In this document: piece by piece, positions 10,129 to 51,932 of the stretch
Position numbering within the stretch: position 1 is the first letter of the stretch
Layout: the number at the start of each line of letters is the position of its first letter
Origin: an uncultured virus (IMG/VR IMGVR_UViG_2791355164_000002)
Taxonomy: Duplodnaviria > Heunggongvirae > Uroviricota > Caudoviricetes
Strand: one strand, 5' to 3'
Virus record (IMG/VR): IMGVR_UViG_2791355164_000002
Length of the DNA: 64,000 nt
The notes under the pieces: model-generated
Told to the model about the DNA's origin: nothing
Databases searched by the model: none
What the model saw: only the letters and a program-made list of their open reading frames with translations
Position numbers and translations under genes: made by a program

Positions 10129-10734
10129 ATGATGACCACACATCCAAAACAAAAAAGATGCCCCATCTGCGATCTGATGTTCACCCCGTGGATGACAACG
10201 CAGCATGTTTGTTCTAACTATCAATGTGCCATAGCCTGGAATCGAAAGCAGGATGAGCGCTACCGCATTCGCGCCGAACGCCGCCGTCAGCGTGCCGGAT
10301 TACCCTTCAAACAAAAAGAACGGCGAGAATTCTTAAAAGAAGCCCAGGAAGCTTTCAATAAATATATTCGGGTGCGTGATGCCGGTCGTCCCTGTCATGC
10401 CTGCGGATGCGTTCTGAATGATAACAACCCGGATCGACCAGGCGCTTTTGTCGATGCCAGTCATTTTCGTTCCCGCGCCCGCGCCAGTCAGCTGCGTTTC
10501 AATGTGTTCAACTGCGTGACCTCTTGCGTGCATTGTAACCGCGACCTATCCGGTAACATTCCGAATCTGCGTCGCGGGCTGATTGATCGGTTTGGTCTGT
10601 CAATCGTGATCCGCCTGGAATGTGATAACACCTTCAAACCCTACACCATCAGCTATCTTGTTCGCCTCAAAGAGATCTTCTCCCGACGAACCGAACACCT
10701 TATTCGCCTGCGCGCAGGTAAGGAGGCGCTATGA
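10129..10734 (+). CDS. ninG: NinG/Rap-family endonuclease
   Basis: CPIC...CSNYQC, AQEAFNKYIRVRD, PCHACG, DASHFRSR, LRFN...CVHCN. Confidence 0.88.
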   Translation: MMTTHPKQKRCPICDLMFTPWMTTQHVCSNYQCAIAWNRKQDERYRIRAERRRQRAGLPFKQKERREFLKEAQEAFNKYIRVRDAGRPCHACGCVLNDNNPDRPGAFVDASHFRSRARASQLRFNVFNCVTSCVHCNRDLSGNIPNLRRGLIDRFGLSIVIRLECDNTFKPYTISYLVRLKEIFSRRTEHLIRLRAGKEAL

Positions 10735-11366
10735 ATCTGGAAAAAACCGTTCGCTTTCATTTCCCGAAATCCTCCCGTGTCAGTGATGAACCGCGAGGAA
10801 CCAGCGCCGACACCCTTCAGATGTCCGAGGTGATGGCGGCGATCGGCATGGCGGAGGCTAATGCCGGGTTTGGCATGTCGGCGTTCTTTGGCAAGATGGG
10901 GTTAAGCCAGAACGACAAAAATAGAGCGGTTACGGCGTTGATGAAGCTCACACGGGCGCGAATCGGGAAGCTGAAGCTGGTGGCCGAACTCACTGGCCGT
11001 CAGCGCGCCCGGATGATTTATCTGATGGCTCTGTTTGCTTATGAAGATTATTGCCGTACTGCGGCGACGCCAGAAAACCGCTGTCCGAGTTGCAAAGGGC
11101 GTGGCATCGTGAGAGACGTGCCGAAGATTGCGGAAACCCACCAGCGTGTCATGAAGACCTGTAGTCGGTGTAAAGGATTCGGTTTCAGGCGAGTGAAGGG
11201 CGAACACCTGCGGAGTGCGATAAAGCAAATTATGCCGGAACTCTCACAGGCGTCGTTTTATCGCTACCTGTTTCCAGTCTTTAAGGAGTTAATTCAGGTT
11301 TGTTTTGAGGAGGAGACACGCGCGAATAACGCTTTAAAGAAAGTTTCTCACCAAAATATGTATTAA
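10731..11366 (+). CDS. Q: Late antiterminator Q (lambda Q family)
   Basis: Aligns end to end with lambda Q, including FHFPKS, YEDYCRTAAT and the CPSC..CSRC Zn finger. Confidence 0.93.
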   Translation: MNLEKTVRFHFPKSSRVSDEPRGTSADTLQMSEVMAAIGMAEANAGFGMSAFFGKMGLSQNDKNRAVTALMKLTRARIGKLKLVAELTGRQRARMIYLMALFAYEDYCRTAATPENRCPSCKGRGIVRDVPKIAETHQRVMKTCSRCKGFGFRRVKGEHLRSAIKQIMPELSQASFYRYLFPVFKELIQVCFEEETRANNALKKVSHQNMY

Positions 11367-11392: not shown

Positions 11393-11421
11393 TTGAAAGC
11401 CTGAAAAAAACTGCATAAGCT
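11393..11421 (+). promoter_or_regulatory. Putative late promoter pR-prime
   Basis: TTGAAA-N17-TAAGCT just downstream of Q. Confidence 0.55.
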
Positions 11422-11585: not shown

Positions 11586-11912
11586 CTCTTTTGGTTTGGT
11601 AGTGGCCAAAAAAATGGCCTTCTTCATGAAGGCCAAACTGAAACAACAGTGGATAACATCTTTAGATTATGACCGTTTTAAACCAGCAAACAATAAAACG
11701 GCATCGACAAGATTATTTCACCCCTAAAATGAATGCGTATTAATCTGAGCGATTTCCAAAAATTCGCATTCATTGAAACGTCGTCGTGATTTGTGCTGAT
11801 TATTTTTCATCCGATTGAAATTGCAAAAATGCATATGTGGCGACACGAGCAGCGGGCTAGAATTGCGCTTAACCCGACCTGTCAATAATAATCCAAATGT
11901 GAGAAGCCACTT

Positions 11913-12317
11913 ATGGACCATTTAGAAATTACGCACAATCAGGAATTTGCGTTTGCTGCCGTGGCGGCGATGTCCCTCGTTTCCTTTGCAACCGGGCCTC
12001 AGACCGAAAACGAGCTAGAAGAAATTTATATTCAGCTTCATGATTCCCGGCGATTAATTCAGGAGATTGAATTTTCTCTTGAGGCGCTTGACGAGGTGAA
12101 AGAACGCCTTCAGCTTAATTATCCTGATGCACAGGAAGCGATTTTATCCGATCTGGGTCGGATGGAACTCGATCATGAAGAGGCCGTTGAAATCGTCAAT
12201 ATGGCGCTTGATGTTGTGAAAAGTAATAAAGACGTTGAGCCTGAAAAAATGGACGTGATTTCTGGTTTGTGTAAAGTCTTGAATTTATATTCTGAACAAT
12301 TTAATTTTATCACCTGA
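11913..12317 (+). CDS. Divergent TerB-fold protein 1
   Basis: FAFAAVAAMSLVSFATG...EEAVEIVNMALDVVKSNKDVEPEKMDVISGLCKVLNL aligns by eye with the TerB at 13051. Confidence 0.55.
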   Translation: MDHLEITHNQEFAFAAVAAMSLVSFATGPQTENELEEIYIQLHDSRRLIQEIEFSLEALDEVKERLQLNYPDAQEAILSDLGRMELDHEEAVEIVNMALDVVKSNKDVEPEKMDVISGLCKVLNLYSEQFNFIT

Positions 12318-12361
12318 TACCGCTATTCCATACCTCAACCAGTAGCATTTGCTAACGTTTC

Positions 12362-12390
12362 GCCCTGTCGCAAGTCAGGGCTTTTTTTTT
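12362..12390 (+). terminator. Intrinsic terminator
   Basis: GCCCTG...CAGGGC followed by a T run. Confidence 0.75.
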
Positions 12391-12433
12391 GAGCGTTCTG
12401 GCTGGCTGAGTGACACAATTTTGATTACACTTC

Positions 12434-12871
12434 GTGTCTTTCACACGGAGAATGAACAGTGATATGCGATACCCGGTCGATGTTATACCTTCCAGCTGCG
12501 GTTTTATCATTTTTTGTCGTGACATTCCTGAAGCTCAGGGACATGGGGAGACATCAGAGTGCGCCTTGCAAAACTGTCGGGAAACGCTGATCGCTGTCCT
12601 GGATGACCGATTCACGGCGCGCGAGGCGATACCGCTTCCGGGTGAGGTCGATGGCCATTTCATTGACGTGCCGCTCAGCATTGCCGCGAAGGTGCTGTTG
12701 CTGAATGAGGTGGTTGAACAAGGGGTGTCAAACTCCGAACTCGCGAAACGCATCGGTTTACCCCGACAGGAAATCACCCGCATTTTAAATTTGAACCACA
12801 CCACGAAAATTGACACAATTCAAAAAGCAATGTCAGCGCTCGGAAAAACGTTGATGTTACGTGTGTGTTGA
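12434..12871 (+). CDS. hicB: HicB antitoxin with no adjacent hicA (real start probably 12452 or 12464)
   Basis: MRYPV..DIPEA..HFIDVPLSIAAKVLLLN..ELAKRIG.PRQEITRILNLNHTTKIDTIQ closely follows E. coli HicB. Confidence 0.92.
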   Translation: MSFTRRMNSDMRYPVDVIPSSCGFIIFCRDIPEAQGHGETSECALQNCRETLIAVLDDRFTAREAIPLPGEVDGHFIDVPLSIAAKVLLLNEVVEQGVSNSELAKRIGLPRQEITRILNLNHTTKIDTIQKAMSALGKTLMLRVC

Positions 12872-12900
12872 TTCCTTACTTCTGGTATATCCATTCATAC

Positions 12901-12931
12901 AGCCTGAACATTCGTGTTCAGGCTTTTTTTT
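12901..12931 (+). terminator. Intrinsic terminator after hicB
   Basis: AGCCTGAACA-TTCG-TGTTCAGGCT followed by a T run. Confidence 0.85.
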
Positions 12932-13050
12932 GTCGCTTTTCCCAAGCGATGTTTACTGAGAGATCCTTTAAAGGGTGAGTCGGGTGGGTTCATTCGGCTC
13001 TCTCACTGGATGTTCTCCTGGGAAACGGCTCACCCTCTAAAGGATAAAAT

Positions 13051-13485
13051 ATGTTCGGTTTCTTAAAGAAACGCGCTCGCCGCGTGACCAATGACATCAC
13101 CAAATTTGAAAAACGTGATCTGGCGCAAGCTGTCGTGAATGCAGCCTGGCTGGTGGCGTTCGCGGATGGGAATTGTGATCCGATTGAGCGCGCCAAAATC
13201 GACCAGGTGCTGAAGACGAATCCGGTTCTCTATAATTTCACGAGCGAGCTGGCCGAAATCTCGACCAAAATCGTCAATTTGCTGGAGACCGATTTCAAGA
13301 TCGGACGGCGCGCGGCGATGCGCGAAATCGAGGATGTGAAGGGCGATCAGCGTGAAGCGGAAGATGTGCTTGATGTCGCAGTGGCCATCGCTGAGGCAGA
13401 CGGCGAAATTGAGAAATCAGAAATGAAGGTGCTCGAACAGATCGCCCTGGTCCTCGGGTTACGGCTGGAGAATCACCTTGAATAA
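13051..13485 (+). CDS. TerB-family protein 2 (canonical copy)
   Basis: Two ADG motifs: LVAFADGNCD and IAEADGEIEKSE. Confidence 0.9.
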   Translation: MFGFLKKRARRVTNDITKFEKRDLAQAVVNAAWLVAFADGNCDPIERAKIDQVLKTNPVLYNFTSELAEISTKIVNLLETDFKIGRRAAMREIEDVKGDQREAEDVLDVAVAIAEADGEIEKSEMKVLEQIALVLGLRLENHLE

Positions 13486-13630
13486 TAAATACCCGCAAAA
13501 TATTTATTTTACGGGGCTTCTGGTTTTCTTTCTGATCTTTCACTTTCTGGGAACCCTTGCCGCCAGCTTCTCGGATGGGGTGTTGCTGGGTGTCGTCTAT
13601 CTGCTGCTGAAGGCTAACCGGGACCGCTGA
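13478..13630 (+). CDS. 50-aa hydrophobic membrane protein coupled to terB (not in ORF track)
   Basis: Read by hand from TTG: MNNKYPQNIYFTGLLVFFLIFHFLGTLAASFSDGVLLGVVYLLLKANRDR. Confidence 0.6.
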   Translation: MNNKYPQNIYFTGLLVFFLIFHFLGTLAASFSDGVLLGVVYLLLKANRDR

Positions 13631-13637
13631 GGGAGGC

Positions 13638-14042
13638 ATGATGAGAGTTTCTGATCTGACCCTGATGGAATTCATTGCCAGAATTAACGTCATGAATCTG
13701 GCGCTGTTTGCGAACGGCGAGGTGAATGAGGATCTGAAGCCTGCGATCACTGAGTTGATTGAAGCGCTTGACCTGTCTGAAGAAGGGCGGTTTCTCTGTC
13801 GTAAACTCATGTCGCGCCAGCAGGCAGAATTAGAACGGGATTTTCATACGGCGCTCGATCAGCTGTTCTTTTCGCTGGAACCGGTAGCGGACTGGCCAAA
13901 TATGGCGCATCGGGTTCAGGTCATTTATATGGTGCTGGTGGAAGAGAAAGGCGAGCTGACCGAATCCGAGATCACCCTTGCTCAGGAACTGGCGGAAACC
14001 CTCGCGCTCGACGTCGATTATTACTTAGATCGCACAGACTAA
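13638..14042 (+). CDS. Divergent TerB-fold protein 3
   Basis: LALFANGEV...LERDF...EEKGELTESEITLAQELAETLALDVDYYL; GGAGG RBS. Confidence 0.6.
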   Translation: MMRVSDLTLMEFIARINVMNLALFANGEVNEDLKPAITELIEALDLSEEGRFLCRKLMSRQQAELERDFHTALDQLFFSLEPVADWPNMAHRVQVIYMVLVEEKGELTESEITLAQELAETLALDVDYYLDRTD

Positions 14043-14118
14043 GAGGCTTTTTCGATTCAGGTCGTTATCTTCAAAGGTAAATCGCTAAGTTTTTAACCGA
14101 TTACCTAAAGGAGGTAAG

Positions 14119-14511
14119 ATGATCGAACCCACAGAAACCCTGAACCCGGATGATAAAGAACTTATCTTTGCCATCATCCTCATCGATGTGATTTATCTCA
14201 TCGCCTTCGCTGAACGCTATCCCACGGAACGACAGGTGAAGCTCATTGAGCATATTCGCGAATATGAACCTACGTTGCAAAACAGCAAATTCGTCAATGC
14301 AATTATTGCGGATTCGCTCGAAGACAAACTGTCGACGGATTACACCCGGACCGCGAATCGTATTCTCATGAATATGAGTCGTATCGTCAGCGATCAGGCG
14401 ATGTGCGAAAAGATTTATGCCTATGCCCAGGAGGTCGCATTAATGGGTGATGGCATTACGCCGAATGTTCAGAATTTGCTTGATCGCATTGGCGACGCGC
14501 TGTTTTTATAG
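14119..14511 (+). CDS. Divergent TerB-fold protein 4
   Basis: YLIAFAE...LSTDY...EVALMGDGITPNVQNLLDRIGDALFL; AAGGAGG RBS. Confidence 0.55.
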   Translation: MIEPTETLNPDDKELIFAIILIDVIYLIAFAERYPTERQVKLIEHIREYEPTLQNSKFVNAIIADSLEDKLSTDYTRTANRILMNMSRIVSDQAMCEKIYAYAQEVALMGDGITPNVQNLLDRIGDALFL

Positions 14512-14519
14512 GTGATCAC

Positions 14520-14705
14520 ATGAACGGTTCTGAAATGAAAAAGCTCGCGCAGGCTCGCAACGAGCTTTTGCAGGCTAAAGCCTGTCTTGAGGACGGTCAG
14601 ACTGAGAAGAGTAAACTGAGCGTGATTGCGGCGCTCTGTTTTATCGATTTGATTTATACCCTTGAGGCAAGAGGATCAGCCGAACTTGTCCGGCAAGGGC
14701 AATAA
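14520..14705 (+). CDS. Small hypothetical protein
   Basis: 61 aa with AGGTG RBS; last gene of the TerB cluster. Confidence 0.55.
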   Translation: MNGSEMKKLAQARNELLQAKACLEDGQTEKSKLSVIAALCFIDLIYTLEARGSAELVRQGQ

Positions 14706-14987
14706 CATTATATCGCGCTTGACTCGCGTGGGATAACTCGTCTCAAAGGCCACAAGGCTCAGTTCATAATTCACCTGAAGCTTTATCCAGAAATCGAGTT
14801 CTTCACTGAAGAACTGCGATAATTTAGTGCAAAGCGTGAGAGACATGGGCATTTTCATGTCGATCACGTCTTTCATTTCATCCTCATCAAAATTTATTCG
14901 AAGCGCCAGCTCGAAAAACGCCAGCTTTAATTCACGCAGACGACATTTGAGAACCAAACCCGGATGGGGATGAATATTCTCACTCAT
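14676..14987 (-). CDS. HigA-like antitoxin (degenerate HTH), no adjacent toxin
   Basis: PHPGLVL...LA...KLSQFF....DFWIKLQVNYEL HigA signature. Confidence 0.8.
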   Translation of the reverse strand: MSENIHPHPGLVLKCRLRELKLAFFELALRINFDEDEMKDVIDMKMPMSLTLCTKLSQFFSEELDFWIKLQVNYELSLVAFETSYPTRVKRDIMLLPLPDKFG

Positions 14988-15051: not shown

Positions 15052-15363
15052 TCAATCTGAGCGATCCAGCGGAAGTGAATCGGGCAGAGGATAAATCGGC
15101 ACGTTCTCCGCGTCTTCCTTGCGTTTTGCACGGGAAATATCGTGGCGAGCCTGCATTTCCAGCAAGGCTTCAGGCGTGGTGCTGATGGCTTTGGCGATCT
15201 TGATAGCTACCGCTGCCGTCAGCGCGGTTTTACGTTTGATCAGCCTGTCGACCAGCACGGGTGATTCACCGATGTCATGCGCCAGCCTTCCTTGCGTCAC
15301 ATTCAGCAGTTTTAAAAGGCGCTTTATTTCATCGCCTGGATGGGGTGTCAATATCTGCGTCAT
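15052..15363 (-). CDS. HigA-like antitoxin, no adjacent toxin
   Basis: PHPGDEI...TQGRLAHDIG...LTAAVAIKIAKAISTTPEALLEMQARHDI. Confidence 0.85.
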   Translation of the reverse strand: MTQILTPHPGDEIKRLLKLLNVTQGRLAHDIGESPVLVDRLIKRKTALTAAVAIKIAKAISTTPEALLEMQARHDISRAKRKEDAENVPIYPLPDSLPLDRSD

Positions 15364-18091: not shown

Positions 18092-18384
18092 CGACGCTGA
18101 AACCCAGACTGAACAGCCTGAATCCACATCGGCTGAAAACGATGAAAGTCGCCGATAAACGGATAACCGGCGTCACGCTTCAACAGCGTCGGCTGAAAGT
18201 CTGGCAACGTGACCCGCGCTGTGTGATGTGCGGCAAACTGACCGAATATCCGCACGGGTTCGAGCTGGATCATATTATTCCGCTCTATTTAGGCGGCGAA
18301 GATGTGATTGAAAACACCCAGATCCTCTGTTGTGGTGATGAAGGCTGTCACAAGAAAAAAACCATGCAGGACATGAAAACATGA
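18079..18384 (+). CDS. HNH endonuclease (HK97 gp74-like terminase cofactor)
   Basis: CVMCG, ELDHIIPL..GG, NTQILC...CHKKKT. Confidence 0.88.
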   Translation: MARLTTLKPRLNSLNPHRLKTMKVADKRITGVTLQQRRLKVWQRDPRCVMCGKLTEYPHGFELDHIIPLYLGGEDVIENTQILCCGDEGCHKKKTMQDMKT

Positions 18385-18548
18385 AATCTTATTCAGAATT
18401 TGAATTTATTGATGACGTTAGCGAAATTCTTGATCAGGTTGAGCAAGATACGATCGAAATTATTCGTGAAGAGGGCGATCCCGTCATGATTATTTCACGG
18501 AATGTTTACGATATGTTTATTCATGAACTCGCGCATATGATTCGTTAA
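18381..18548 (+). CDS. 55-aa Phd/YefM-like protein, no adjacent toxin (not in ORF track)
   Basis: Read by hand: MKSYSEFEFIDDVSEILDQVEQDTIEIIREEGDPVMIISRNVYDMFIHELAHMIR; ATGA overlap with the HNH stop. Confidence 0.6.
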   Translation: MKSYSEFEFIDDVSEILDQVEQDTIEIIREEGDPVMIISRNVYDMFIHELAHMIR

Positions 18549-18559
18549 CCGAGGTCATT

Positions 18560-20326
18560 ATGATCTTTACTACGGCTGATCGCATAGTGGGTGGAAAAGT
18601 TGACAGTTCAGGTGTGATCCCGCTTGAAATCTGGACTGGCTTTTCTGAGGCCGGTAAGGGTAAGGCGGTCACACCTGTTCCGCCTGCACCCGATGATATT
18701 AATCTTTTAAACCCACAAACCGATCCGCGCGTCACGTATTCTGGTCCAGCTCATCTTTACTGGTCTGATTCAGGTGTGTTGATGAAGTCGGATGAGAATG
18801 ACTGGCCGCTTGAATTTAAAAACGGTGAGCCGGTCGGTCGTAGCCTGCCCGAACCTCAAACCACGAACTTTCAAGAAAACTGTCGCGCCGTGGAAACGTC
18901 AGCGAACGTGATTGTCTCAACTGGCTCATCCCTGAATGTTGATGCGACAGGCGCACCGGATGGCGGCGGAATTTGTCTTGTCCCGGCCATCTCTGAATAC
19001 TATCTGGTTTCACAGGATGTCAACGGCATTGATCTCCAGCCTGGCACGGCTTATTCATTAACGGCTGACTGGACGCGACTCGTTTTTGCCCGAAATGTTT
19101 CCACCCAAAGCCGGACGCGAATTTGGTTAGGACGTGATCTCGATAATTCTTCCGGGATTCCGTTTGTTTTCCTGACGCAAACCAATGCAATGAATAATGG
19201 TAATTACGTGTTTTCGTGGTTTGCGCGCGTCGCTGATGCGTCAAATTTTCATGCTGGCATCGGACAAATTGAGAACAGCAATTATCCCTATTCGACGTCG
19301 CCGATTATTAATGAAAGCGATGTTCAGGGCGAAAGGGCGGCTTCTTCAGTAACCATCGCTAATCAGGGCAATTCGCAGGGTCTGGCGCTGATTTATGATG
19401 ACAGAATGATTTCAGTCATTCCCTTCAGCGGTGAAGCGTCGATTTCGTTGCCGTTTGCCACCTGGAACTGGAGTGAACGCTATCTTACCCGAATTAAGTT
19501 TCTGAGCAATATCCCAGATTTGTCGCCCATCGATATGACGGCAGAAACGTTAGATTCTCGTGTCACTTATACGGGTCCGGCACATACTTATCTGGATCAA
19601 GCCGGGAATCTTGCCACGAGCGCTGAAAACGAATGGCCGCTTGAATATGTTAATGGTCAGGTGATGGGTCGCCACGAACCCGAACCAAGTACGACAAATT
19701 ACGCGATTGATTCGGCTATTACCGATCTTGCCCAGGTTGGCACGAATGCCAGCTGGATGTTCCCTCAGGGAACCACAATCACTGTTTCAGATTCAGAAGG
19801 GAGTCAGTTTCCCATTATCAATTCTGAAAGCCTGAAAGTCTTTGTAGGGGTCTATAACGAAACGAAGGGTGCGTTTCTGGTTCCTGACACGAACCCCAAC
19901 ACGGGATCAGACTGGTCACGCGTGATTCTGCCTTTTACGAACGATATGGCTTCAGAACTTCGCTTTTATACCCAGCGCGAAACCACGACCAGTTATCTTT
20001 ATGAGAAATGTCCAGCCGTTCCCACAGGTTCCTTTGTTGCGTCTGTTTATCGCAAATTGACGTCTGAGAATATGCAAGCTACCGCGCCGCAGATTGAACC
20101 CGGAACCGTTCCGACTTCACCCATCTTCAATGGTGAAACTGAGCAGAACACCCGGAAAGCGGCAAAAGCGATTGTGACGAATCCTGGCCTCGCAACACAA
20201 ATTCAGATCGACTATTCCGATAATTCAAGAGCGATAGTGTCGTTCACGAATAATCAGGCCGTTATTCCGTTCTCTTCGCTGGCATGGTCGTCACGCTATA
20301 TCACCACCATTCGTTTCTTATACTAA
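18560..20326 (+). CDS. Two-domain virion fibre protein, probable head-spike fibre
   Basis: Two homologous domains of about 270 aa (D(P/S)RVTY(S/T)GPAH..EN(D/E)WPLE..GR..PEP.TTN..QIE...TSPI..W.WS.RY); beta-rich and Ser/Thr-rich. Confidence 0.55.
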   Translation: MIFTTADRIVGGKVDSSGVIPLEIWTGFSEAGKGKAVTPVPPAPDDINLLNPQTDPRVTYSGPAHLYWSDSGVLMKSDENDWPLEFKNGEPVGRSLPEPQTTNFQENCRAVETSANVIVSTGSSLNVDATGAPDGGGICLVPAISEYYLVSQDVNGIDLQPGTAYSLTADWTRLVFARNVSTQSRTRIWLGRDLDNSSGIPFVFLTQTNAMNNGNYVFSWFARVADASNFHAGIGQIENSNYPYSTSPIINESDVQGERAASSVTIANQGNSQGLALIYDDRMISVIPFSGEASISLPFATWNWSERYLTRIKFLSNIPDLSPIDMTAETLDSRVTYTGPAHTYLDQAGNLATSAENEWPLEYVNGQVMGRHEPEPSTTNYAIDSAITDLAQVGTNASWMFPQGTTITVSDSEGSQFPIINSESLKVFVGVYNETKGAFLVPDTNPNTGSDWSRVILPFTNDMASELRFYTQRETTTSYLYEKCPAVPTGSFVASVYRKLTSENMQATAPQIEPGTVPTSPIFNGETEQNTRKAAKAIVTNPGLATQIQIDYSDNSRAIVSFTNNQAVIPFSSLAWSSRYITTIRFLY

Positions 20327-20594: not shown

Positions 20595-20846
20595 ATGTTG
20601 AGGATTAATAATATGTCTTTATTCGGTAACTCTAAGCCTTTGGATCCTGCAAAGATTCCAGATCTTTTGAACTCTATTGATTCTGGTGACCTCACATCGG
20701 TTCACCGACTGACTTCAAAGAGTGGCGATAATTTTCTGCTTGTACCTGAAGAAAAAGTTAAATCATTTTTTAGTGACTTTCATTCTGCAATTGAAGATGT
20801 TCAAAACAAATTTCAAGAAGAGATTAGCGGACTGCTTGTTAAATAA
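20595..20846 (+). CDS. Small protein, paralog A, possibly degenerate Phd/YefM-like
   Basis: Shares HRLTSKSGDNFLLVPEEK with the next ORF. Confidence 0.6.
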   Translation: MLRINNMSLFGNSKPLDPAKIPDLLNSIDSGDLTSVHRLTSKSGDNFLLVPEEKVKSFFSDFHSAIEDVQNKFQEEISGLLVK

Positions 20847-20884
20847 TCTGATTTTAATTTAAACCCTGAATTGATTTATATATC

Positions 20885-21121
20885 TTGAGGAAAAAATCTA
20901 TGGGATTTTTTGATACATTGAAAGACCTTCCCGCTGAGGAAGCGCAGCAGATTTTAGATCTTATTCATCACAGGAACCCACTCTTCGGTCATCGCCTCAC
21001 TTCAAAAAGTGGTGATAATTTTCTATTAGTACCTGAAGAAAAATTTAAAGATCATCTTAATGCATTCCATACCGCGTTGAATGCGTTTTATAACGACTAT
21101 GGCTCACCTGATAAAGGTTGA
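20885..21121 (+). CDS. Small protein, paralog B, possibly degenerate Phd/YefM-like
   Basis: Shares HRLTSKSGDNFLLVPEEK with the previous ORF. Confidence 0.6.
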   Translation: MRKKSMGFFDTLKDLPAEEAQQILDLIHHRNPLFGHRLTSKSGDNFLLVPEEKFKDHLNAFHTALNAFYNDYGSPDKG

Positions 21122-22241: not shown

Positions 22242-22562
22242 ATGAAGAAAATAATGCTTATTGGCTCTTTTTTTGCTGCTGTTTCGTTCTCTGGCCTTGC
22301 TCAAGCGGTCGATTGTCCGGCTCCTGATACCGTTGTTTCTACCCATATTGAAAAAGATTCTGACGGTATTTCAAGCATGATTTACTGTTCACCTTCCTCT
22401 TCAGAATGTTCCTGGAAAGGATTCGATCCTTTTGCCACCGAAGGACATAAAGTGGTATCGCTGACCAGTGGCAGCATAGCGACCGAACACAACGGCTTAA
22501 CGTATTGTGATTACAAGCTTGATTCAGGTGATCAGATCCGACTTTCTTTGTTAAAGAAATAA
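22242..22562 (+). CDS. Secreted 4-Cys protein, paralog A (DUF3757-like)
   Basis: Signal peptide; CPAP, IYCSPS, ECSWKG, HNGLTYCDY. Confidence 0.7.
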   Translation: MKKIMLIGSFFAAVSFSGLAQAVDCPAPDTVVSTHIEKDSDGISSMIYCSPSSSECSWKGFDPFATEGHKVVSLTSGSIATEHNGLTYCDYKLDSGDQIRLSLLKK

Positions 22563-22668
22563 CTATTTATTTTTTATAACATATTTCCTAAATCCGCCTT
22601 TATGGCGGATTTTTATTTTACATAGAAATCTAACTTCCCGGTTTTGAAAAAATACGGGTGATCATCTC

Positions 22669-22875
22669 ATGAATTATCTTGAATTTATCGAAAGCAATAT
22701 TGCGTCCGAACTCCTTCGTCTCGGATTCGATAAGTCAGCGGCGAGTGCTGGCGCGCGTGAAGGTGTCGCCTTTTTTCAACGAGCAACCTCATCAGGCAAA
22801 AAGGGCAAAATATTCGAAGATTGCCTTTCTCACGCGAAATTATTCGCCAAAAAACACGATTCAAAGAAAAAATAA
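22669..22875 (+). CDS. Small hypothetical phage protein
   Basis: 68-aa ORF between the two secreted paralogs. Confidence 0.65.
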   Translation: MNYLEFIESNIASELLRLGFDKSAASAGAREGVAFFQRATSSGKKGKIFEDCLSHAKLFAKKHDSKKK

Positions 22876-22920
22876 CGCCAAAATTCCCTAATCTCTTCAA
22901 AAAGTAAGGAGAATTACCCC

Positions 22921-23241
22921 ATGTTTAAGAAAATAATGCTTATTTCAATCCTGTCTTTTGTTTCTTGTGCTGCCATTGCGGCGGAAGTGAGGTGTCCTTT
23001 GCCTGAAAACGTCCGCACCAATGGGAAAGTCCAGATTGAAGACGGGATCCCCGGTTTCATTTACTGCTCTCCTTCCACACTGGAATGCAAATGGAAGGGC
23101 ATTGACCCGATCTCTGATGAGGCAAGCCCAGTCGTTTCTGTGAATAATCCAGGCAACAAGGCTACCCAACATAACGGGCTGACGTATTGTGATTATACAC
23201 TGAAAAACGGTTCACAAATCCGTATGGCTTTAGAAAAATAA
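22921..23241 (+). CDS. Secreted Cys-rich protein, paralog B (DUF3757-like)
   Basis: Signal peptide; CPLP, IYCSPS, ECKWKG, HNGLTYCDY. Confidence 0.7.
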   Translation: MFKKIMLISILSFVSCAAIAAEVRCPLPENVRTNGKVQIEDGIPGFIYCSPSTLECKWKGIDPISDEASPVVSVNNPGNKATQHNGLTYCDYTLKNGSQIRMALEK

Positions 23242-23261: not shown

Positions 23262-23768
23262 ATGCTCACCACAAAAAAAAGGAATTTTGCCGAACACTGG
23301 ATGAGTGGTAATAATAAAACTCAGTCCGCCATTAAAGCCGGTTACAGTGCGGCAAGTGCAAAATATAAAGGTCACGAGCTATCAAAGGATAAAGACGTTC
23401 TGGAATACATTGAACGCATTAAGGCGATGAATCCCGCGCCAGCTCCTGCGCCTGAGCCGGTTCCGCAACCTGTTATCCCGCAACCGGCGGACCTTCCTGA
23501 AGAGGTGTCTGAAGATCCGCCTGTTCCTAAACTCGTCACCTCGAAAAAGATTAAAGATCCTCTCGTGGTCCTTGAGATGATCATGAACCAGCATCTTTAC
23601 ACCGATCCGAAGCTGGCAATGGATGCCGCCGCGAAGCTTGCGCCTTATGTGTCCGCTAAAGTCGGTGAAACCGGGAAGAAAGAGGCGAAGAACATGGCGG
23701 CGAAGAAGGCGGCAGGGGCTTTTTCAGCCATGACACCGCCTAAAATTGTCGTTAATAACGTGATTTAG
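23262..23768 (+). CDS. Terminase small subunit
   Basis: LTTKKRNFA..NKTQSAIKAGYSAASA HTH; upstream of terL. Confidence 0.88.
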   Translation: MLTTKKRNFAEHWMSGNNKTQSAIKAGYSAASAKYKGHELSKDKDVLEYIERIKAMNPAPAPAPEPVPQPVIPQPADLPEEVSEDPPVPKLVTSKKIKDPLVVLEMIMNQHLYTDPKLAMDAAAKLAPYVSAKVGETGKKEAKNMAAKKAAGAFSAMTPPKIVVNNVI

Positions 23769-24012
23769 CGGTTAAAACAACCTCAGGGGCGTCCTTTTCC
23801 TGCTTAAACTGGCGAAGATAGTCCCCCATTTCCTTAAAATCACCGCCCAGCTTTTCCATTAAACCGATCAGTTCCATCTGATGGGCGAGGGGGAGCGGAC
23901 GAAAGAAAAGCCCAAGTGTAAATTTCACCAGTTCAAGCTGGCGCGTCAGTTCTTCGGTCGTTTGATAATCTTTGTGAAGCGTAAAGTTTTCGATTATTCG
24001 GCTCGATCGCAT
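23752..24012 (-). CDS. Hypothetical protein inserted antisense between terS and terL
   Basis: 86 aa with GAGGA upstream. Confidence 0.55.
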   Translation of the reverse strand: MRSSRIIENFTLHKDYQTTEELTRQLELVKFTLGLFFRPLPLAHQMELIGLMEKLGGDFKEMGDYLRQFKQEKDAPEVVLTAKSRY

Positions 24013-24104
24013 TTTCAGACATCCTCTCGCTAGGTTTTGAGAACTTATCGATTACCTCGACCTAAAGATTCTCATTCCGAGCTTATTTTAGACAAAGGTC
24101 TTCG

Positions 24105-25763
24105 ATGGAATGGCGTACCGATTGCCCTGACTGGGCCGAACGATTACTGAATAAAAAATCGATCATCCCTCCGCCGATTTATCCTGAAACGGCTGAGATT
24201 GCGCTTAACATTTTCAAAAAACTCCGCGTGTCAGATCTCCCCGGCAAGCCCACCTTCGGGGAATGTTGCGATCAGTTCATCTTTGATTTCGTGAAAGCGA
24301 TCTTCGGCGGCTATGACGTTGAAACCGGGTTTCAGAAGATCAGAGAATATGGCCTTCTCATCAGCAAAAAAAACACGAAGTCGACCATCGCCGCAGGCGT
24401 AATGATGACGGCCCTGATTTTGTGCTGGCGCGAGGATGAAGAACACCTGATTCTGGCTCCGACGAAAGAGGTGGCGGATAACAGTTTTAAACCGGCTGCA
24501 TCGATGATCCGATCCGATGAAGAGCTGTCAGATATTTTTCACGTTCAGGACCATACCCGCACCATTACCCATCGGGTGAATCGCAATTCCCTCAAAGTGG
24601 TTGCCGCCGATACCGATACGGTGTCCGGTAAGAAGTCCGGGCGGGTGCTGGTGGATGAATTGTGGATATTCGGTAAACGCGCTAAAGCTGAATCGATGTT
24701 CATGGAAGCCCTGGGTGGTCAGGTTTCCCGAAATGAAGGATGGGTAATTTTCCTCACCACGCAAAGCGATGAACCTCCCGCCGGTATCTTCAAACAGAAG
24801 CTCGATTACTGGCGCGATGTGCGAGACGGGATCATTAAAGACCCCAAAACGCTCGGAATTTTGTATGAATTCCCGCAAGACATGATTGAAAGCAAGGCTT
24901 ACGAAGATCCGAATAACTTCTATATCACCAATCCGAACATCGGACGATCGGTCAACCGTGACTGGCTTGAAGGTGAGTTTAAGAAGTACCAGCACAAAAC
25001 GGATGGCACATATCAGCAGTTTCTGGCCAAACACCTGAACATAGAAATCGGCCTTAACCTGCGAAACGATCGGTGGCCGGGTGCGGATTACTGGGAGTCC
25101 CAGCAGGATGATTCAATCACGTTCGATTCCATCCTGAAACGTTCTGAAGTGATTTGTGTGGGTATCGATGGCGGTGGCCTGGATGACCTGCTGGGGCTGA
25201 CAATCGTCGGACGCGATAAGCATTCGCGCGAATGGCTTTCATGGTCGCATGGTTGGGCAACCCGTAAGGCGATCGAACGACGCAAGAGCGAAGAGAGCCG
25301 TCTGAATGATTTCGTTGCCAACGGTGATTTCACGATTATCGATGAAGTCGGCGAGGATTTTGAACAAATCAGCCAGATGGTGATGCAAATCTTCAATGCT
25401 GGCCTCCTCGATAAGGTCGGAATGGACCCAGCGGGGGTGGGCATGTTGCTCGATGCGATGGTTGAAGCGGGCCTTCCTCAGGATTCCATCATTGGCATCA
25501 GCCAGGGCTGGCGTCTCGGAGGCGCGATTAAGACCACTGAACGCAAGCTTGCCGAAGGCACACTGATCCATGCGAAACAACCGCTGATGAACTGGTGTGT
25601 CGGGAACGCGAAAATCGTCACCTCAAGTAATGCCACCCTTATCACCAAACAGGCGAGTGGGGTGGGCAAAATCGATCCCCTGATGGCCTTGTTCGATGCC
25701 GTATCACTGATGGCCCTTAACCCCGGACCCACGAAGAAAGATTACGGGGTTTTCTTTATCTGA
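24105..25763 (+). CDS. Terminase large subunit
   Basis: ISKKNTKST Walker A, VLVDE Walker B, GIDGGGLDD nuclease, KIDPLMA. Confidence 0.95.
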   Translation: MEWRTDCPDWAERLLNKKSIIPPPIYPETAEIALNIFKKLRVSDLPGKPTFGECCDQFIFDFVKAIFGGYDVETGFQKIREYGLLISKKNTKSTIAAGVMMTALILCWREDEEHLILAPTKEVADNSFKPAASMIRSDEELSDIFHVQDHTRTITHRVNRNSLKVVAADTDTVSGKKSGRVLVDELWIFGKRAKAESMFMEALGGQVSRNEGWVIFLTTQSDEPPAGIFKQKLDYWRDVRDGIIKDPKTLGILYEFPQDMIESKAYEDPNNFYITNPNIGRSVNRDWLEGEFKKYQHKTDGTYQQFLAKHLNIEIGLNLRNDRWPGADYWESQQDDSITFDSILKRSEVICVGIDGGGLDDLLGLTIVGRDKHSREWLSWSHGWATRKAIERRKSEESRLNDFVANGDFTIIDEVGEDFEQISQMVMQIFNAGLLDKVGMDPAGVGMLLDAMVEAGLPQDSIIGISQGWRLGGAIKTTERKLAEGTLIHAKQPLMNWCVGNAKIVTSSNATLITKQASGVGKIDPLMALFDAVSLMALNPGPTKKDYGVFFI

Positions 25764-29981: not shown

Positions 29982-32900
29982 ATGTTCAATTTCCTCCGGC
30001 GAAAGCCCAAAGAAAAATCTAAAGCCCTCCATTCGCTTCATGCTGGGGCATGGAGTCGGGTTCTTGAGCCTTTCGGCGGAGCATGGCAACGCAACATTGA
30101 AATCAGGCTGGACAGTGTTTTAGCGTTTCCGGCCATCTTCAGCTGTATTTCGCTGATCTCTGCCGATATTGCAAAGATGCCCGTGGCCGTTAAGCGTCGC
30201 CAGTCTAACGGGGTGTGGGTGAAGGTGAACAATCCAGAACTCACGCCACTCCTTGAGAAACCGAATTTCTATCAAACCTCCATGCAGTTCTTTGAACTCT
30301 GGATGATTTCAAAGCTGGCACACGGAAACGCGTATATTCTCAAACTTCGGGATGAAGCGGGGCGCGTGCGCCAGCTGCGCGTGTTAGATCCGCGTCGTGT
30401 GATCCCCTATATTTCCGATGATGGTGAAATCTTCTATTCCATCCTGACCGATGAGCTGAACGGCTTGCCAGGTGGGCTTTATGTCCCAGCTCGTGAACTG
30501 ATTCACGATCGCTTCAACACTTTCTTTCATCCGCTTTGCGGACTCTCACCCGTCTATGCCTCTGGGCTGGCTGCGATCGGCGGTGAGGCGATGTTACGAA
30601 ATTCCGCACATACCTTTAAGAACGGTGGCAAGCCTGGCGGGATCATCACTGTCCCCGGATCGGTGGATGCGGATAAAGCGCGCGAGATTAAAGATAACTG
30701 GAACGAAGGTTATACGGGCGAGAATGCAGGTAAAACAGCCTTGCTTGCTGATGGCGCGGCTTTCGTCGCCGTGGCGCAGACCGCGACGGATTCGCAGCTG
30801 GTGGAACAGCTCAATCTGTCGAATCAGCTCGTGGCGTCAACCTTTCGCGTCCCGCTCTATAAAATCGATACCGGTCAAACCCCGTCTTATAACAACATCG
30901 AGGCGCTTGAGCAGGCGTATTACTCACAGTGCCTTCAGGTTCATATGACGGCCATAGAAGGCCTGCTTGCGGATACGTTCGATTTGAACGATCAGACCTG
31001 TGTAGAGTTCGACCACAGCCGTCTTCTGAGAATGGACACCGCCGCGCGATATAAATCCTATGGCGACGGCATCGGAGCCGGTTTCCTTGCCCCGAATGAG
31101 GCGCGCATTAAGGAAAATATGGATCCGGTTGAAGGGGGTGATACGCCTTATCTTCAGCAGCAGAATTATTCACTGGAAGCGCTGGCGAAACGTGATGCGC
31201 AGGATAATCCCTTTTCCTCAAGCTCAGGATCTTCATCGATTAATTCTGATGATGACAGCTCTGATAATAATCCACCCGCCTCGAATCAACCTGATCCTAA
31301 TCAACCTCTTACCGAAAATGAAGCTGAGAATGTTCGCGCCTTAATCCTTTATTATGAACATAGCGAAAATAACGAGAATGAAATGATTTCAGAACGCGAA
31401 ATGTCATTAATAAAAACGCTCGGTCAGTCGACGCATGAGATTATTAAAGAAGCCGTCGATAATATTCGGGATGAATTTCAACCTCACCTTGAAGATAAAG
31501 ATAATACGATTGCTTATCTCAATAAAAATCTTCAGGAAGCTTACGAGATCAATCTTAAATGTCATACATTGCTGACCGAACATAAAGAACTCGTGCTTGA
31601 CCTGAAAAAAGAAGTGGAAGAGATCGAAAAGAACGCTGTCGATGAATCTGCCATTGCCTCGATGGTCTATGCGATGATTGAAATTCCAGATGCGCCGGAA
31701 TTACCCGATATTCCCGCTATCGTTAAGGACGCGGTGTCGCATATCCCGATCCCGGTACATGAACCGTTACCGGATATAGCGGAAATGGTTCTGAATGCGG
31801 TGCGTGTTGCCCGTGAAGGTGATCCTTCGGCTGAAGATATTGCTGAAATGGTCCGAAAAGCCGTGGGTGAAATCGAGATCCCGAAACCTGAACCCGCCAT
31901 TCCGCCTGACATTGAGGCGATTATTGATCAGGTGGTGGAACAATTTGTTCAGCCCGAACCCGAACCGCTGCCGGACATTAAAGCGATGGTCGAAGAGGCG
32001 GTGTCTCGCATCACGATCCCTCAGCCCGAACCCTTGCCCGATATTGGTGCAATGGTGAAATCAGCTATCGAGGCCATCCCGATCCCTCAGCCTGAGCCGC
32101 TACCGGATTTCGCTCAAATGATAGAGAAAGCCGTTTCAGAGATTGAGATCCCTCAACCGGAACCGCTGCCTGATGTGGAAAAGATGGTGAATGCAGCGGT
32201 TGATCGCATTGAGGTTTACCAGCCTGAACCGTTGCCCGATTTCTCGGTGATGGTGAAAGAAGCGGTTGATCTTGCCGTCGCGGCGATTGAGTTGCCGAAG
32301 CCTGAGCCGCTCCCGGATTTTAAAACCATCATCAAATCGGCCATTGAGAACATCAGGTTACCGGAACCTTCGCCGCTGCCGGACATTCCGGCCATGATCA
32401 GTGATGCGATTGAGGCGTTCACCCCACCTGAGCCTGATGTGAAGGCCATCGCTCGCGAGGTGATGAGGCAAATTCCGGTTCCTGAGATCGAACCCTTACC
32501 GGATTTTGCATCGATGATTCAAAAAGCGGTGAGTGAAATTGATCTTCCTGAACCTGAGCCGCTACCCGATATTCAGCAGCTGGTGGAAGAGGCGGTGAAG
32601 GGCATCGACATCCCGATCCCTGAGCCGAAGCCACTACCAGATATTAAAGCGATGGTTAAGGAAGCCGTGTCGTCTATCGCGATCCCGCAGCCGAAAGACC
32701 CTGAGCCATTGCCCGATATTCAGCAGATGGTGGAAGAAGCAATGAAGGGCATCGACATCCCGATCCCCGAACCTCAGCCACTGCCGGATATAAAAGCAAT
32801 GGTCCAGGAGGCCGTGTCCTCTATCGCGATCCCTCAACCTAAAGACCCCGAGCCGTTGCCTGATATTCAACAGCTCGTGGAAGAGGCGGTTAAGGGTATC

Positions 32901-33731
32901 GACATCCCGATCCCCGAACCGCAGCCACTGCCGGATATAAAGGCAATGATTCAGGAGGCGGTGTCCGCTATCGAGATACCCAAACCCAAAGATCCTGAAC
33001 CATTACCCGACATTGCGAGGCTGTTAGAGCGTGCCGTGTCTGAATACCCGATGCCTGAACCCGAACCCTTACCGGATATTGAAAAAATGGTGAGAGAAGC
33101 CGTTGCTGCCATCGAGATCCCTCAACCGAAAGAACCAGAACCGTTACCTGACATTGCCGCGCTCGTCGCCGGTGCGGTTGCCGGTATTCAGTTCCCGGAC
33201 CCGGAACCGATTGAGCTGCCCGACTTTGCCAAAATGATCGCCGAAGCGGTTCAGAACGCCGTCGCCGCGCTGCCTGCACCTGAACCGGGTAAGGGTGAGG
33301 ACGGAAAAGACGGCCTTCAGATCGAGGTGTTACCTGAAATTAACGTCAATAAGAGCTATCCGCGCGGAACCTATGCCATTCATAACGGCGGATTATGGCG
33401 GGCTTACCAGAAAACCTCAGGTCTGAGCGGATTTGAATGTGTGGTGAACGGGCTGAATGACATCGATGTGAACGTTGAAGGGGATCGTCACTTTACGGTT
33501 CGCATGAGTAAATCAAACGGCGAAACCGAAGAGCGGGATTTCACTCTTCCTGTGATGATTTACCGTGATGTCTATCAGGCTGGACAGACCTATTACCCTG
33601 GCGACTGCGTGACGTTCGGCGGTTCTATCTGGCACTGCTACGAAGAAACCGATAACCGGCCTAACGATGTCGGTTCAACAGGCTGGCGGCTCGCCGTTAA
33701 AAAAGGGCGGGATGGAAGGAGCAATTCATGA
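29982..33731 (+). CDS. HK97-type portal with an approximately 830-aa Pro-rich repeat extension
   Basis: Portal motifs GNAY, IHDR, GLSPV, PNEAR in the first ~410 aa; then a coiled coil, repeats and a C-terminal domain ending WRLAVKKGRDG. Confidence 0.9.
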   Translation: MFNFLRRKPKEKSKALHSLHAGAWSRVLEPFGGAWQRNIEIRLDSVLAFPAIFSCISLISADIAKMPVAVKRRQSNGVWVKVNNPELTPLLEKPNFYQTSMQFFELWMISKLAHGNAYILKLRDEAGRVRQLRVLDPRRVIPYISDDGEIFYSILTDELNGLPGGLYVPARELIHDRFNTFFHPLCGLSPVYASGLAAIGGEAMLRNSAHTFKNGGKPGGIITVPGSVDADKAREIKDNWNEGYTGENAGKTALLADGAAFVAVAQTATDSQLVEQLNLSNQLVASTFRVPLYKIDTGQTPSYNNIEALEQAYYSQCLQVHMTAIEGLLADTFDLNDQTCVEFDHSRLLRMDTAARYKSYGDGIGAGFLAPNEARIKENMDPVEGGDTPYLQQQNYSLEALAKRDAQDNPFSSSSGSSSINSDDDSSDNNPPASNQPDPNQPLTENEAENVRALILYYEHSENNENEMISEREMSLIKTLGQSTHEIIKEAVDNIRDEFQPHLEDKDNTIAYLNKNLQEAYEINLKCHTLLTEHKELVLDLKKEVEEIEKNAVDESAIASMVYAMIEIPDAPELPDIPAIVKDAVSHIPIPVHEPLPDIAEMVLNAVRVAREGDPSAEDIAEMVRKAVGEIEIPKPEPAIPPDIEAIIDQVVEQFVQPEPEPLPDIKAMVEEAVSRITIPQPEPLPDIGAMVKSAIEAIPIPQPEPLPDFAQMIEKAVSEIEIPQPEPLPDVEKMVNAAVDRIEVYQPEPLPDFSVMVKEAVDLAVAAIELPKPEPLPDFKTIIKSAIENIRLPEPSPLPDIPAMISDAIEAFTPPEPDVKAIAREVMRQIPVPEIEPLPDFASMIQKAVSEIDLPEPEPLPDIQQLVEEAVKGIDIPIPEPKPLPDIKAMVKEAVSSIAIPQPKDPEPLPDIQQMVEEAMKGIDIPIPEPQPLPDIKAMVQEAVSSIAIPQPKDPEPLPDIQQLVEEAVKGIDIPIPEPQPLPDIKAMIQEAVSAIEIPKPKDPEPLPDIARLLERAVSEYPMPEPEPLPDIEKMVREAVAAIEIPQPKEPEPLPDIAALVAGAVAGIQFPDPEPIELPDFAKMIAEAVQNAVAALPAPEPGKGEDGKDGLQIEVLPEINVNKSYPRGTYAIHNGGLWRAYQKTSGLSGFECVVNGLNDIDVNVEGDRHFTVRMSKSNGETEERDFTLPVMIYRDVYQAGQTYYPGDCVTFGGSIWHCYEETDNRPNDVGSTGWRLAVKKGRDGRSNS
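31690..33290 (+). repeat. About 23 coding repeats PEPLPD(I/F)xxMVxEAVxxIxIP
   Basis: Counted in the translation; includes three 147-bp units starting at 32568, 32715 and 32862. Confidence 0.92.
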
Positions 33732-36815: not shown

Positions 36816-37177
36816 GCTGCGCTTTCGGCTGTTTGTCGTGAGCATCAGTGATCGGCAGGCAAAAGAAAGCCCCCAGCAAACTTTTTATCATTTGGAGGGG
36901 GCGACCCTTGTCTTCGCAACACAAGAGTAGCCCCTTAACCGCCGAAAGGCAAGTTTGGAGGCTCAACCATGCAAAACAAAGGCGCAGTTATGGCTGCGAT
37001 CATCTGTTTAACCATTCTGGCTGTTATCTGGCTGGAACGTGACAGGCTCTGTGATGTTCGCATTAAAACGAATGTCTTTGAGGTTGACGCCGGGTTGAGC
37101 TACGAACTTAACAGTTAAGGGGTCTGAAGGCGGGGTTCGTCCCCGCCATCAGGCGAAGAATTGTCGCAAAGCGCAGC
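36816..37177 (+). other. hok/sok-type type I toxin-antitoxin locus 1
   Basis: 5-prime GCTGCGCTTT (36816) is complementary to 3-prime AAAGCGCAGC (37168), giving fold-back pairing; hok-like leader; mok-like ORF 36848-37042. Confidence 0.8.
36969..37118 (+). CDS. Hok/Gef-family toxin 1 (not in ORF track)
   Basis: MQNKGAVMAAIICLTILAVIWLERDRLCDVRIKTNVFEVDAGLSYELNS. Confidence 0.9.
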   Translation: MQNKGAVMAAIICLTILAVIWLERDRLCDVRIKTNVFEVDAGLSYELNS

Positions 37178-41857: not shown

Positions 41858-41926
41858 TCGCTCAGTTTGTGCAGCTTATTTATTCGCCTTTCTTATTATC
41901 AAATCATCTTCTGGAGTGAGGTGTTC

Positions 41927-42811: not shown

Positions 42812-42886
42812 TGATGGTGTCGTTGTAAAACCCTGTCAAAGGGATTTGATTCTTACCTCTGGCCTTTAACTTTAAGAGAGGTTTTT

Positions 42887-43780: not shown

Positions 43781-43784
43781 GCCT

Positions 43785-44684: not shown

Positions 44685-44875
44685 GACCCAACCCGCGAAA
44701 GCGGGTTTTTTTTCCCTCAAAAACCTCATCGAATACCTAAGTTATTTTCGCTCAGAATGAGATTTCCTAAACATTGATTTAAAGATAATCAGTTGACGGT
44801 TTTGAGATCTTGAAAACCGCTCTGTTCTTTAAAGTGTTGAAAATAAATTCTAATTTTGAGGTTTTTGGAGATTTC

Positions 44876-51923: not shown

Positions 51924-51932
51924 GGAACACCC

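Follow-up and report, generated by a model that had tools for sequence, protein, structure and literature searches.

Organization of the locus

The stretch of DNA analysed here, referred to as the window, is 64,000 nucleotides (nt) from an uncultured virus (IMG/VR record IMGVR_UViG_2791355164_000002) and holds a lambdoid prophage, arranged as recT/recE, cI, cro, cII, O, P, nin, Q, terminase (23262-25763), and head and tail genes. This analysis concerns four genes for small TerB-family proteins that follow the late antiterminator gene Q. The copy at 13051 is called TciA and the others are T1 (11913), T3 (13638), and T4 (14119); T5 is a fifth copy, in the host genome G005. The window begins at recT, and T5, a GH19 gene, and a secretion cluster are known from relatives. 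The genes of the locus, with protein lengths in amino acids (aa), isoelectric points (pI), and expect values (E), are as follows.

10731..11366, plus strand: late antiterminator Q (PF03589, E 1e-27)
11913..12317, plus strand: T1, divergent TciA paralog, 134 aa, pI 4.3, apparently monocistronic
12464..12871, plus strand: HicB-like antitoxin/helix-turn-helix (HTH) gene with no adjacent toxin partner (phrog_497, E 1e-24)
13051..13485, plus strand: TciA, canonical TerB-family copy, 144 aa (PF05099, E 2e-12)
13478..13630, plus strand: TciB, two-helix membrane peptide of 50 aa, DUF3927-related, overlapping the 13051 stop
13638..14042, plus strand: T3, divergent TciA paralog, 134 aa, pI 4.3, starting 7 nt past tciB
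14119..14511, plus strand: T4, divergent TciA paralog, 130 aa, pI 4.5
14520..14705, plus strand: helical open reading frame (ORF) of 61 aa, present after T4 in most relatives
14676..14987, minus strand: first HigA-like antitoxin/HTH gene with no adjacent toxin partner (TIGR02607, E 4e-11, under cut-off; phrog_1381)
15052..15363, minus strand: second HigA-like antitoxin/HTH gene with no adjacent toxin partner (TIGR02607, E 3e-15, over cut-off)

A preliminary description, made from the sequence alone, had reported ORFs of 134, 144, 134, and 130 aa at these places and a 50-aa membrane ORF coupled to the canonical copy, and both observations hold, the coupling being the overlap of the membrane ORF start with the 13051 stop. 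All four copies of the proposed array are present, but they are not contiguous, because the hicB-like gene and two terminators lie between 11913 and the rest and isolate it. The region is covered in two DNA sequencing runs (X2 and X3), mostly at 95-99 % identity; a further run, X1, may be the source of the window, and X4, with a small share, was set aside.

The canonical tciA-tciB pair

Based on sequence similarity and gene order, 13051 and 13478 are the known P1-type tciA-tciB pair. The protein encoded at 13051 shares 70 % identity with phage JLK-2012 TciA and 43 % with P1 TciA over 143 aa, is the only copy above the Pfam TerB cut-off, and has both D-G-x5-E motifs and the basic N-terminal helix intact. 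A TciA profile matches Klebsiella pneumoniae TerB (2JXU) at E 4e-17, which places TciA in the same fold family as TerB of the ter operon (terZABCDE). In an alignment of 11 TciB members, partners of tciA elsewhere, PF13064 (DUF3927) was matched by four, and not by the peptide from the window; a TciB profile detected the tciA partner in 10 of 10 other genomes. One Asp, within a (S/A)-D-G/A/C stretch, is invariant in all 11 aligned members. This stretch resembles the ADG motif of TciA and could supply a ligand at the membrane.

The order of the tci genes is tciA-tciB-tciC in P1 and Q, tRNAs, tciA, tciB, holin, endolysin, Rz in JLK-2012. The window shares with these loci (phrog_632, PF05099 plus DUF3927) a TciB-type partner and a position after Q, behind a terminator and a structured leader, but no tciC was identified in the window locus. 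Whereas known tciAB loci have one copy, in lambdoids with the lysis cassette behind, the lineage represented by the window carries three or four additional site-less paralogs and lacks the cassette. The view that this is not a described system had therefore overlooked a named gene pair, although the array itself is apparently undescribed. tciA is also present in Erwinia and Salmonella phages of 240 kb, as well as in phages of Pseudomonas and Vibrio; many of these phages are strictly lytic. According to the available part of a CRISPRi screen, P1 tciA, tciB, and tciC are non-essential in the laboratory host (PMC10695390), and the resistance roles predicted for the P1 tci genes are called untested in the accessible text of another report (PMC6799933).

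Fold and lost motifs of the extra copies

All four ORFs match phrog_632, 'tellurite resistance', with E values of 7e-8 (11913), 3e-55 (13051), 2e-7 (13638), and 1e-5 (14119). In the Pfam TerB scan 11913 fell under the cut-off (E 0.003), and there was no match for 13638 or 14119; pairwise, the other copies are 19-22 % identical to T1. When the family profiles were aligned by hhalign to a 36-sequence TciA alignment, over 109-118 columns, probabilities of 94.3 % for T1, 96.8 % for T3, and 96.9 % for T4 were obtained. The relatedness to TerB suggested for 11913, 13638, and 14119 is therefore upheld, at 94-97 % probability to TciA, and these profile-profile probabilities rule out chance helical similarity.

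AlphaFold models of 13638 and 14119 (predicted local distance difference test, pLDDT, 89.9 and 85.5) were compared with 48,161 chains, and the TerB-like 2OU3 and 2H5N ranked first and second for both. For T3 these two gave Z 9.7 and 9.2, root mean square deviation (rmsd) 3.5 and 3.7, and 119 and 120 aligned residues, the next Z being 6.6; for T4 they gave Z 8.5 and 8.4, rmsd 4.4 and 6.4, and 110 and 111 aligned residues, the next being 6.0. These Z values are moderate, below the level stated as safe for helical proteins by the structure-search tool, and the structure result therefore only backs the profile result and is insufficient alone. Identity to 2OU3 (COG3793) and 2H5N (PG1108) is 9-14 %, and the shared fold shows no function. 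With Foldseek, there was nothing at E 0.001 for T3 in the Protein Data Bank, where 2H5N ranked highest (probability 1.0, template modelling score, TM, 0.60), or for T4 among the viral entries, of which the highest-ranking were proteins without names (TM up to 0.79). The models predict a TerB-like helical fold over the whole domain for T3 and T4, and not the departure from this fold that would have spoken against the preliminary description. For T1 the same fold over the whole domain is predicted from its profile, and among its Atlas features TerB clusters make up 28 of 30 matches (best 0.93).

The acidic positions D39, E46, D117, and E124 are invariant in nine of nine sampled TciA. T1 keeps only E46; T3 keeps E124 in 8 of 8 sequences and D117 in 4 of 8, with the others lost; in T4, D39 is replaced by E and the other three positions are gone. 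The earlier observation that 13051 alone holds both ADG motifs, with variant motifs in the other copies, is thus confirmed. The net charge of the N-terminal 18 residues ranges from +4 to +6 in the 36 TciA sequences and from -4 to +1 in the 22 rows of paralogs, and the net charge of the whole protein is -14 to -21 in T1 and -13 to -19 in T3. T1, T3, and T4 therefore lack both features that distinguish TciA, the two D-G-x5-E motifs and the basic amphipathic N-terminal segment. The N-terminal helix of TciA is a putative membrane-binding helix.

Conservation, distribution, and origin

A survey of viral, metagenome, and genome contigs identified 13 related elements once records with the same proteins were merged; L019 and L041 are cut before tciA and were excluded from the counts, leaving 11. 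The array thus recurs in 11 related prophage loci. T1, tciB, and T3 are present in all 11 fully covered relatives and all four copies in eight, T4 being absent from two (the near-identical L007 and L008/L044) and tciA from one (L022/L042). In L042 the leader joins the tciB start directly, a clean deletion of tciA. The copies can therefore do without TciA, since this element has lost tciA yet keeps tciB and the open frames of T1, T3, and T4.

This bears on whether the copies are internal regulators, that is, pseudo-subunits that tune the TciA-TciB module. Such a role would suit the co-location of T3 and T4 with tciAB, the loss of the conserved site with retention of the fold, and the homodimerization predicted for a TerB-domain protein in the part of the literature that was available. 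It is nonetheless distinctly unlikely, given the retention of T1, T3, and T4 in L042 and the location of T1 and T5 in separate units, T5 about 50 kb off.

The ratio of nonsynonymous to synonymous substitution (dN/dS) in five close pairs is 0.05-0.07 for T1, 0.05-0.18 for T3, and 0-0.06 for TciA, and in four pairs is 0.06-0.17 for T4; the paralog values are similar to those of the neighbouring Q and ninG. The paralogs have open frames in every locus that holds them and invariant columns specific to each family. Sequence comparison indicates that each extra copy is under purifying selection. That the copies are decaying, functionless duplicates might be suggested by the absence of T4 from two relatives and tciA from one, and by the 29-64 % identity of the paralogs between relatives vs 84-93 % for TciA, but the low dN/dS, the maintained frames, and the family-specific columns make this scarcely credible, and pseudogene status is ruled out by the dN/dS values. 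In the tree, T1, T3, and T4 each form one group, on stems of 1.4-2.3 changes per column vs less than 0.12 for the TciA branches of the clade. Given the long stems and low dN/dS, each copy went through one phase of rapid divergence and has since been conserved.

T3 and T4 attach among the enterobacterial phage TciA, and the tree gives no resolution of the duplication order. Profile scores were compared across 15 rows of phage type and 20 from the ter side (one of these 20 being a dud), with ter identity judged by the size of the neighbours and annotated for L077 only. T3 scored 18.6-32.4 bits against phage TciA vs 6.7-19.8 against ter-side TerB, T4 reached 49 in the first comparison and no more than 3.1 in the second, and T1 had a median of 19 vs 9, with overlapping ranges. 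An origin of the extra copies from phage TciA rather than from ter-operon TerB is therefore favoured by these scores and appears clear for T3 and T4. Unlike TerB of the ter operon, the copies in the window are not flanked by terA, terC, terD, or terE. TerD was found in none of five related records and genomes, including G005 (the control was positive in 2 of 14), and neither TerC nor TerD was found among the scanned window proteins. The link to ter operons drawn in the preliminary description is not supported, since TerD is missing and the paralog profiles are closer to phage TciA; an origin as a ter operon fragment is likewise ruled out by the missing TerD. Tellurite resistance is unlikely for the array, because TerB without TerC conferred none and was dispensable in one study, as far as its available text reports (PMC8779313).

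In a control search, phrog_632 was matched in 63 of 301 genomes of the host family, with four matches in G005 alone. Each of ten further genomes that carry a full phage-type TciA has a single copy (10 of 10), and a combined paralog profile found no paralog in the 1.5 kb around tciA in those ten. By tblastn, 124 phage records gave 124 places, although this method is blind to paralogs so distant. Of 401 genomes in the order, the T1 profile matched the centre genome and no other, and it matched nothing in 50,697 phage records; T4 matched only one TciA (E 0.06) in the latter. The T3 profile, run against 1.84 billion representatives, found four relatives and ordinary TerB/DjlA-like proteins, three long repetitive proteins being set aside as noise. 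One T1 ortholog is labelled 'tellurite resistance TerB family protein' at NCBI. Candidatus Pantoea communis is the only named host record, and other T1 orthologs bear Pantoea labels. Neither an array of several tciA/TerB copies nor this element was found described in full-text literature searches (subscription papers and supplements being outside their scope); the accessible part of one paper (PMC7371120) mentions one TerB in a prophage of Klebsiella. The array is a real, conserved, and apparently undescribed variant of a known gene pair, limited to one rare lineage. It very probably represents a lineage-specific expansion of tciA in large lambdoid prophages, in which the fold has been kept, the conserved site and the basic N-terminus have mostly been lost, purifying selection acts on the copies, and T3 and T4 stand in the place of the lysis cassette.

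Transcription signals

The following signals were predicted from the sequence.

11393..11421, plus strand: pR'-like promoter (TTG-start hexamer, 17 nt, TAAnCT); all 8 loci examined have the same pattern within 60 nt of the end of Q
11604..11635, minus strand: terminator-like hairpin in the Q-T1 interval, with an equivalent in 8 of 8 loci
11821..11863, plus strand: near-palindromic box with a -10-like TAGAAT upstream of T1; exact in 7 of 8 loci, the eighth differing by spacing/one base
12362..12390, plus strand: intrinsic terminator after T1; all 8 loci have one, and the stems differ
12901..12932, plus strand: intrinsic terminator before the tciA leader; called by script in 7 of 8 loci, L003 having a hairpin without the T run
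12933..13050, plus strand: structured tciA leader of 118 nt, with a long stem that pairs with the ribosome-binding site

The T1 box pattern has a single exact match in the window and, as there is no consensus -35, the promoter-like box is probably activator-dependent. The start of the hicB-like gene is conserved, with a TACACT-like hexamer upstream. No sigma-70 promoter was called in the tciA leader, and the leader had no match at gathering score in Rfam. Its folding is more stable than that of all shuffles (z = -4.0; 0 of 200 as stable), with compensatory change in 13 of 26 consensus pairs among nine sequences. The leader is conserved with the outgroups and is kept, fused to tciB, in L042 (11010-11136). 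Between tciA and T4 there is no conserved plus-strand terminator. T1 thus looks like a separate unit, because it has its own box and terminator, and tciA-tciB-T3-T4-61aa looks like a Q-dependent unit, because tciA follows a terminator and a promoterless leader. There is also a second conserved box (11729-11750) between pR' and T1, which together with the minus-strand terminator at 11604-11635 may suggest an antisense RNA or a further promoter.

These signals are relevant to lysogen exclusion or defence, in which the paralogs would be diversified sensors that feed TciB and block superinfecting phages or colicins. T1, with its own promoter-like box and terminator, is moron-like; tciB, T1, and T3 are constant in all 11 fully covered relatives; in seven loci T3 begins between -8 and +20 nt relative to the end of tciB; and a soluble TerB with a membrane partner recurs in ter (TerB-TerC) and, in the accessible literature, in Dionysus (DinB-DinC). 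However, the position of T3 and T4 behind the terminator and promoterless leader points to late, Q-dependent expression, and in L005 (and L012) an opposite-strand toxin-antitoxin pair splits tciB from T3. Neither the four copies nor TciB had a match in PADLOC 2023 at E <0.02, a library that Dionysus postdates. Exclusion is a serious possibility but an unlikely one.

The missing lysis cassette and the G005 element

In the outgroups L010, L011, L075, L082, and L086, the lysis genes lie behind tciAB, and L010 also shares the downstream glycosyltransferase-HNH-terS block. Where these outgroups have holin-endolysin-spanin, the array lineage has T3-T4-61aa-higA-higA-169aa. The position of the array at the usual place of the lysis cassette, as put forward in the preliminary description, therefore applies to 13638 and 14119 and not to the rest, because tciA-tciB normally lies directly upstream of the cassette. 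The 61-aa ORF (14520) had no family match in the profile scans, its best Atlas match (0.89) being a lead only, and no family was assigned in the scans to the 169-aa ORF of the T3-T4 interval.

None of eight outgroup lysis proteins matched the window. Pfam holin families were matched by all three control holins but by none of the 39 small membrane ORFs collected in the window and in the flanking parts of G005, and PF00959 (lysozyme) and PF03245 (spanin) were found in none of four related viral records and, in G005, only outside the element. The Q-terminase interval therefore appears, by profile, to lack a recognizable holin, endolysin, or spanin, although an unrecognized holin is possible. In the Q-terS interval TciB is the only two-helix small protein, save a 39-aa ORF inside another gene. 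The relatives are collinear at 45-65 % protein identity and have no known lysis cassette, and their head and tail genes are 80-93 % identical.

The G005 element is about 116 kb (C11, about 219,700-336,400), from just past srfB to beyond the integrase, with no att repeat at its ends; many T1-bearing contigs are 95-117 kb, which fits whole elements of such size. At its right end, and facing inward, is a gene for a GH19 endolysin-like protein (phrog_181, E 3e-63; 43 % identity to the L010 cassette endolysin). T5 lies tail to tail with this gene (both at L069:16828-17955), by an AraC-family regulator, and is related to T1 (hhalign 97.1 %). The GH19 gene is in this one element only; the four viral records stop before that place or lack GH19.

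It could be proposed from these arrangements that lysis has been replaced or is timed by the array, with TciB as a holin-like pore, the TerB-fold copies as timers, and the distant GH19 protein as the endolysin. T3 and T4 do stand at the cassette position of the outgroups, TciB is nearly the sole candidate membrane protein of its kind, and T5 adjoins the GH19 gene. Yet tciAB sits beside ordinary holins in the outgroups and apart from the lysis genes in P1, the GH19 gene is oriented against late transcription and confined to one element, and no spanin was found. This makes a lysis role quite improbable, and the lysis modulator suggested in the preliminary description is weakened, there being no holin or spanin found to modulate and tciAB coexisting with an ordinary cassette elsewhere.

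The interval from xis to int in G005, about 50 kb long, contains a type III secretion cluster (secretin, export apparatus, ATPase, sigma-54 activator, and ECF sigma), along with 16 M91-peptidase-like ORFs in tandem and one ORF of 1610 aa (L066-L069). The start of the same arm is visible in L054:398-9415, and G002 shares the first nine ORFs and then ends. No description of this secretion-bearing prophage was found in the literature searches. An hrp-box pattern was found in 0 of 76 loci, even at those holding the secretion cluster, and is thus uninformative. Co-option by a domesticated element, with the copies serving its cargo (secretion system, effectors, surface glycosylation) or the regulation of this, would draw on the secretion cluster and on the collinear relatives without a known lysis cassette, and small acidic helical proteins can be chaperones. 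It is improbable, since the copies are at least 15 kb from the secretion cluster, inside the late region, and head and tail genes at 80-93 % identity speak for a continuing role of particles. With these genes conserved, a genome of about 116 kb raises the question of how it is packaged.

Function of the extra copies

The favoured interpretation, to which we give a probability of about one in three, is that the paralogs are decoys or adaptors directed at TerB-type host membrane surveillance. As site-less, acidic, soluble TerB-fold binding proteins, they would enter host TerB-type membrane-surveillance complexes (ter, Bunzi, Shango, and Dionysus-like), or compete for the partners of these, without signalling, and each copy might address a different target. 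Q read-through would supply T3 and T4 late, together with TciA-TciB, whereas T1 would be made earlier, from its own promoter. This is favoured because the fold has been kept while the conserved site and membrane helix were lost. A phage-side decoy in particular is favoured because TciA occurs in large phages, TerB occurs in Bunzi, Shango, and Dionysus, and the neighbouring antitoxin-like genes are without toxins; the dispensability of P1 tciA, tciB, and tciC in the laboratory host likewise hints at a phage-side role. The available parts of the defence literature report TerB domains as required or present in these three systems and propose membrane surveillance; membrane association of TerB is cited in the accessible portion of the Bunzi/Shango preprint. 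Like the window locus, these systems have a TerB-fold protein next to a membrane protein, but unlike it they belong to the host, and their partners are larger and multi-domain. Of the three functions offered in the preliminary description, the decoy is the best fit, and exclusion suits 11913 more than the late-operon copies.

Several observations weigh against the decoy or adaptor interpretation. The host genome G005, the one host genome, has no other phrog_632 match and no TerD, and therefore offers no evident ter target. A fast arms race would be expected to leave a signature other than strong purifying selection. Many genes are duplicated in the element, including the M91-peptidase-like ORFs in G005 and three esterases and paired tail and HigA-like genes in the window, and so the array may reflect a general duplication habit and not pressure on TerB. 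T1 and T5 group together in the tree (98/98) and lean weakly toward ter-type TerB (64/99, long branches). Metal or ligand binding at the acidic motifs, a reported property of the TerB-like fold, is putative. Finally, if the element has lost its lytic cycle, a lytic-phase decoy would have little to do.

A wider proposal is that a late module of site-less TerB-fold proteins and TciB, in cassette-less, secretion-bearing prophages of 100-117 kb, provides either multi-target decoys against TerB-type host defences or a holin-independent control of the envelope and of particle release; this is unlikely.

Other features of the window

The HicB-like and two HigA-like genes are kept in all fully covered relatives, under purifying selection, and a Phd-like gene at 18381-18548 is a fourth antitoxin-like gene without a neighbouring toxin. 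There are two hok/sok loci, at 36817-37115 and 50930-51229 (Rfam sok, Pfam Hok), and a phd-doc pair in the tail region (48699-49306). Three tandem esterase/lipase-fold genes and a GDSL autotransporter are present among the minor tail genes (41867-44684 and 44810-46843), the esterases being kept in four relatives. Tandem duplications include an 83/78-aa pair (20595-21121), two 106-aa Cys-containing proteins whose N-termini are signal-like (22242-23241), two tail assembly genes (51324-52523), two tail fibres (56520-63050), and a 588-aa internal-repeat protein (18560-20326). The portal ORF (29982-33731) is 1249 aa, far above the usual portal size, and is similarly long in relatives (58-67 % identity). 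A queuine tRNA-ribosyltransferase-like gene (phrog_887; 49416-50171, minus strand) lies among the tail genes and is unmatched in four related records.

Significance

The tciA-tciB pair is widespread, in P1, many enterobacterial prophages, and large phages, with no tested function, and TerB domains recur in anti-phage systems without a known mechanism. In this lineage the lysis cassette has been replaced despite well-conserved head and tail genes, which raises the question of how, or whether, particles exit the cell. With one intact copy, three or four with different acidic losses, elements without T4, and one without TciA, the lineage is a natural mutational series, and what the acidic motifs, the N-terminal helix, and TciB each do is therefore directly testable. 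If the wider proposal of a new late module is true, it would provide the first function for the widespread tciAB pair, and pseudo-TerB proteins would be a class of counter-defence.

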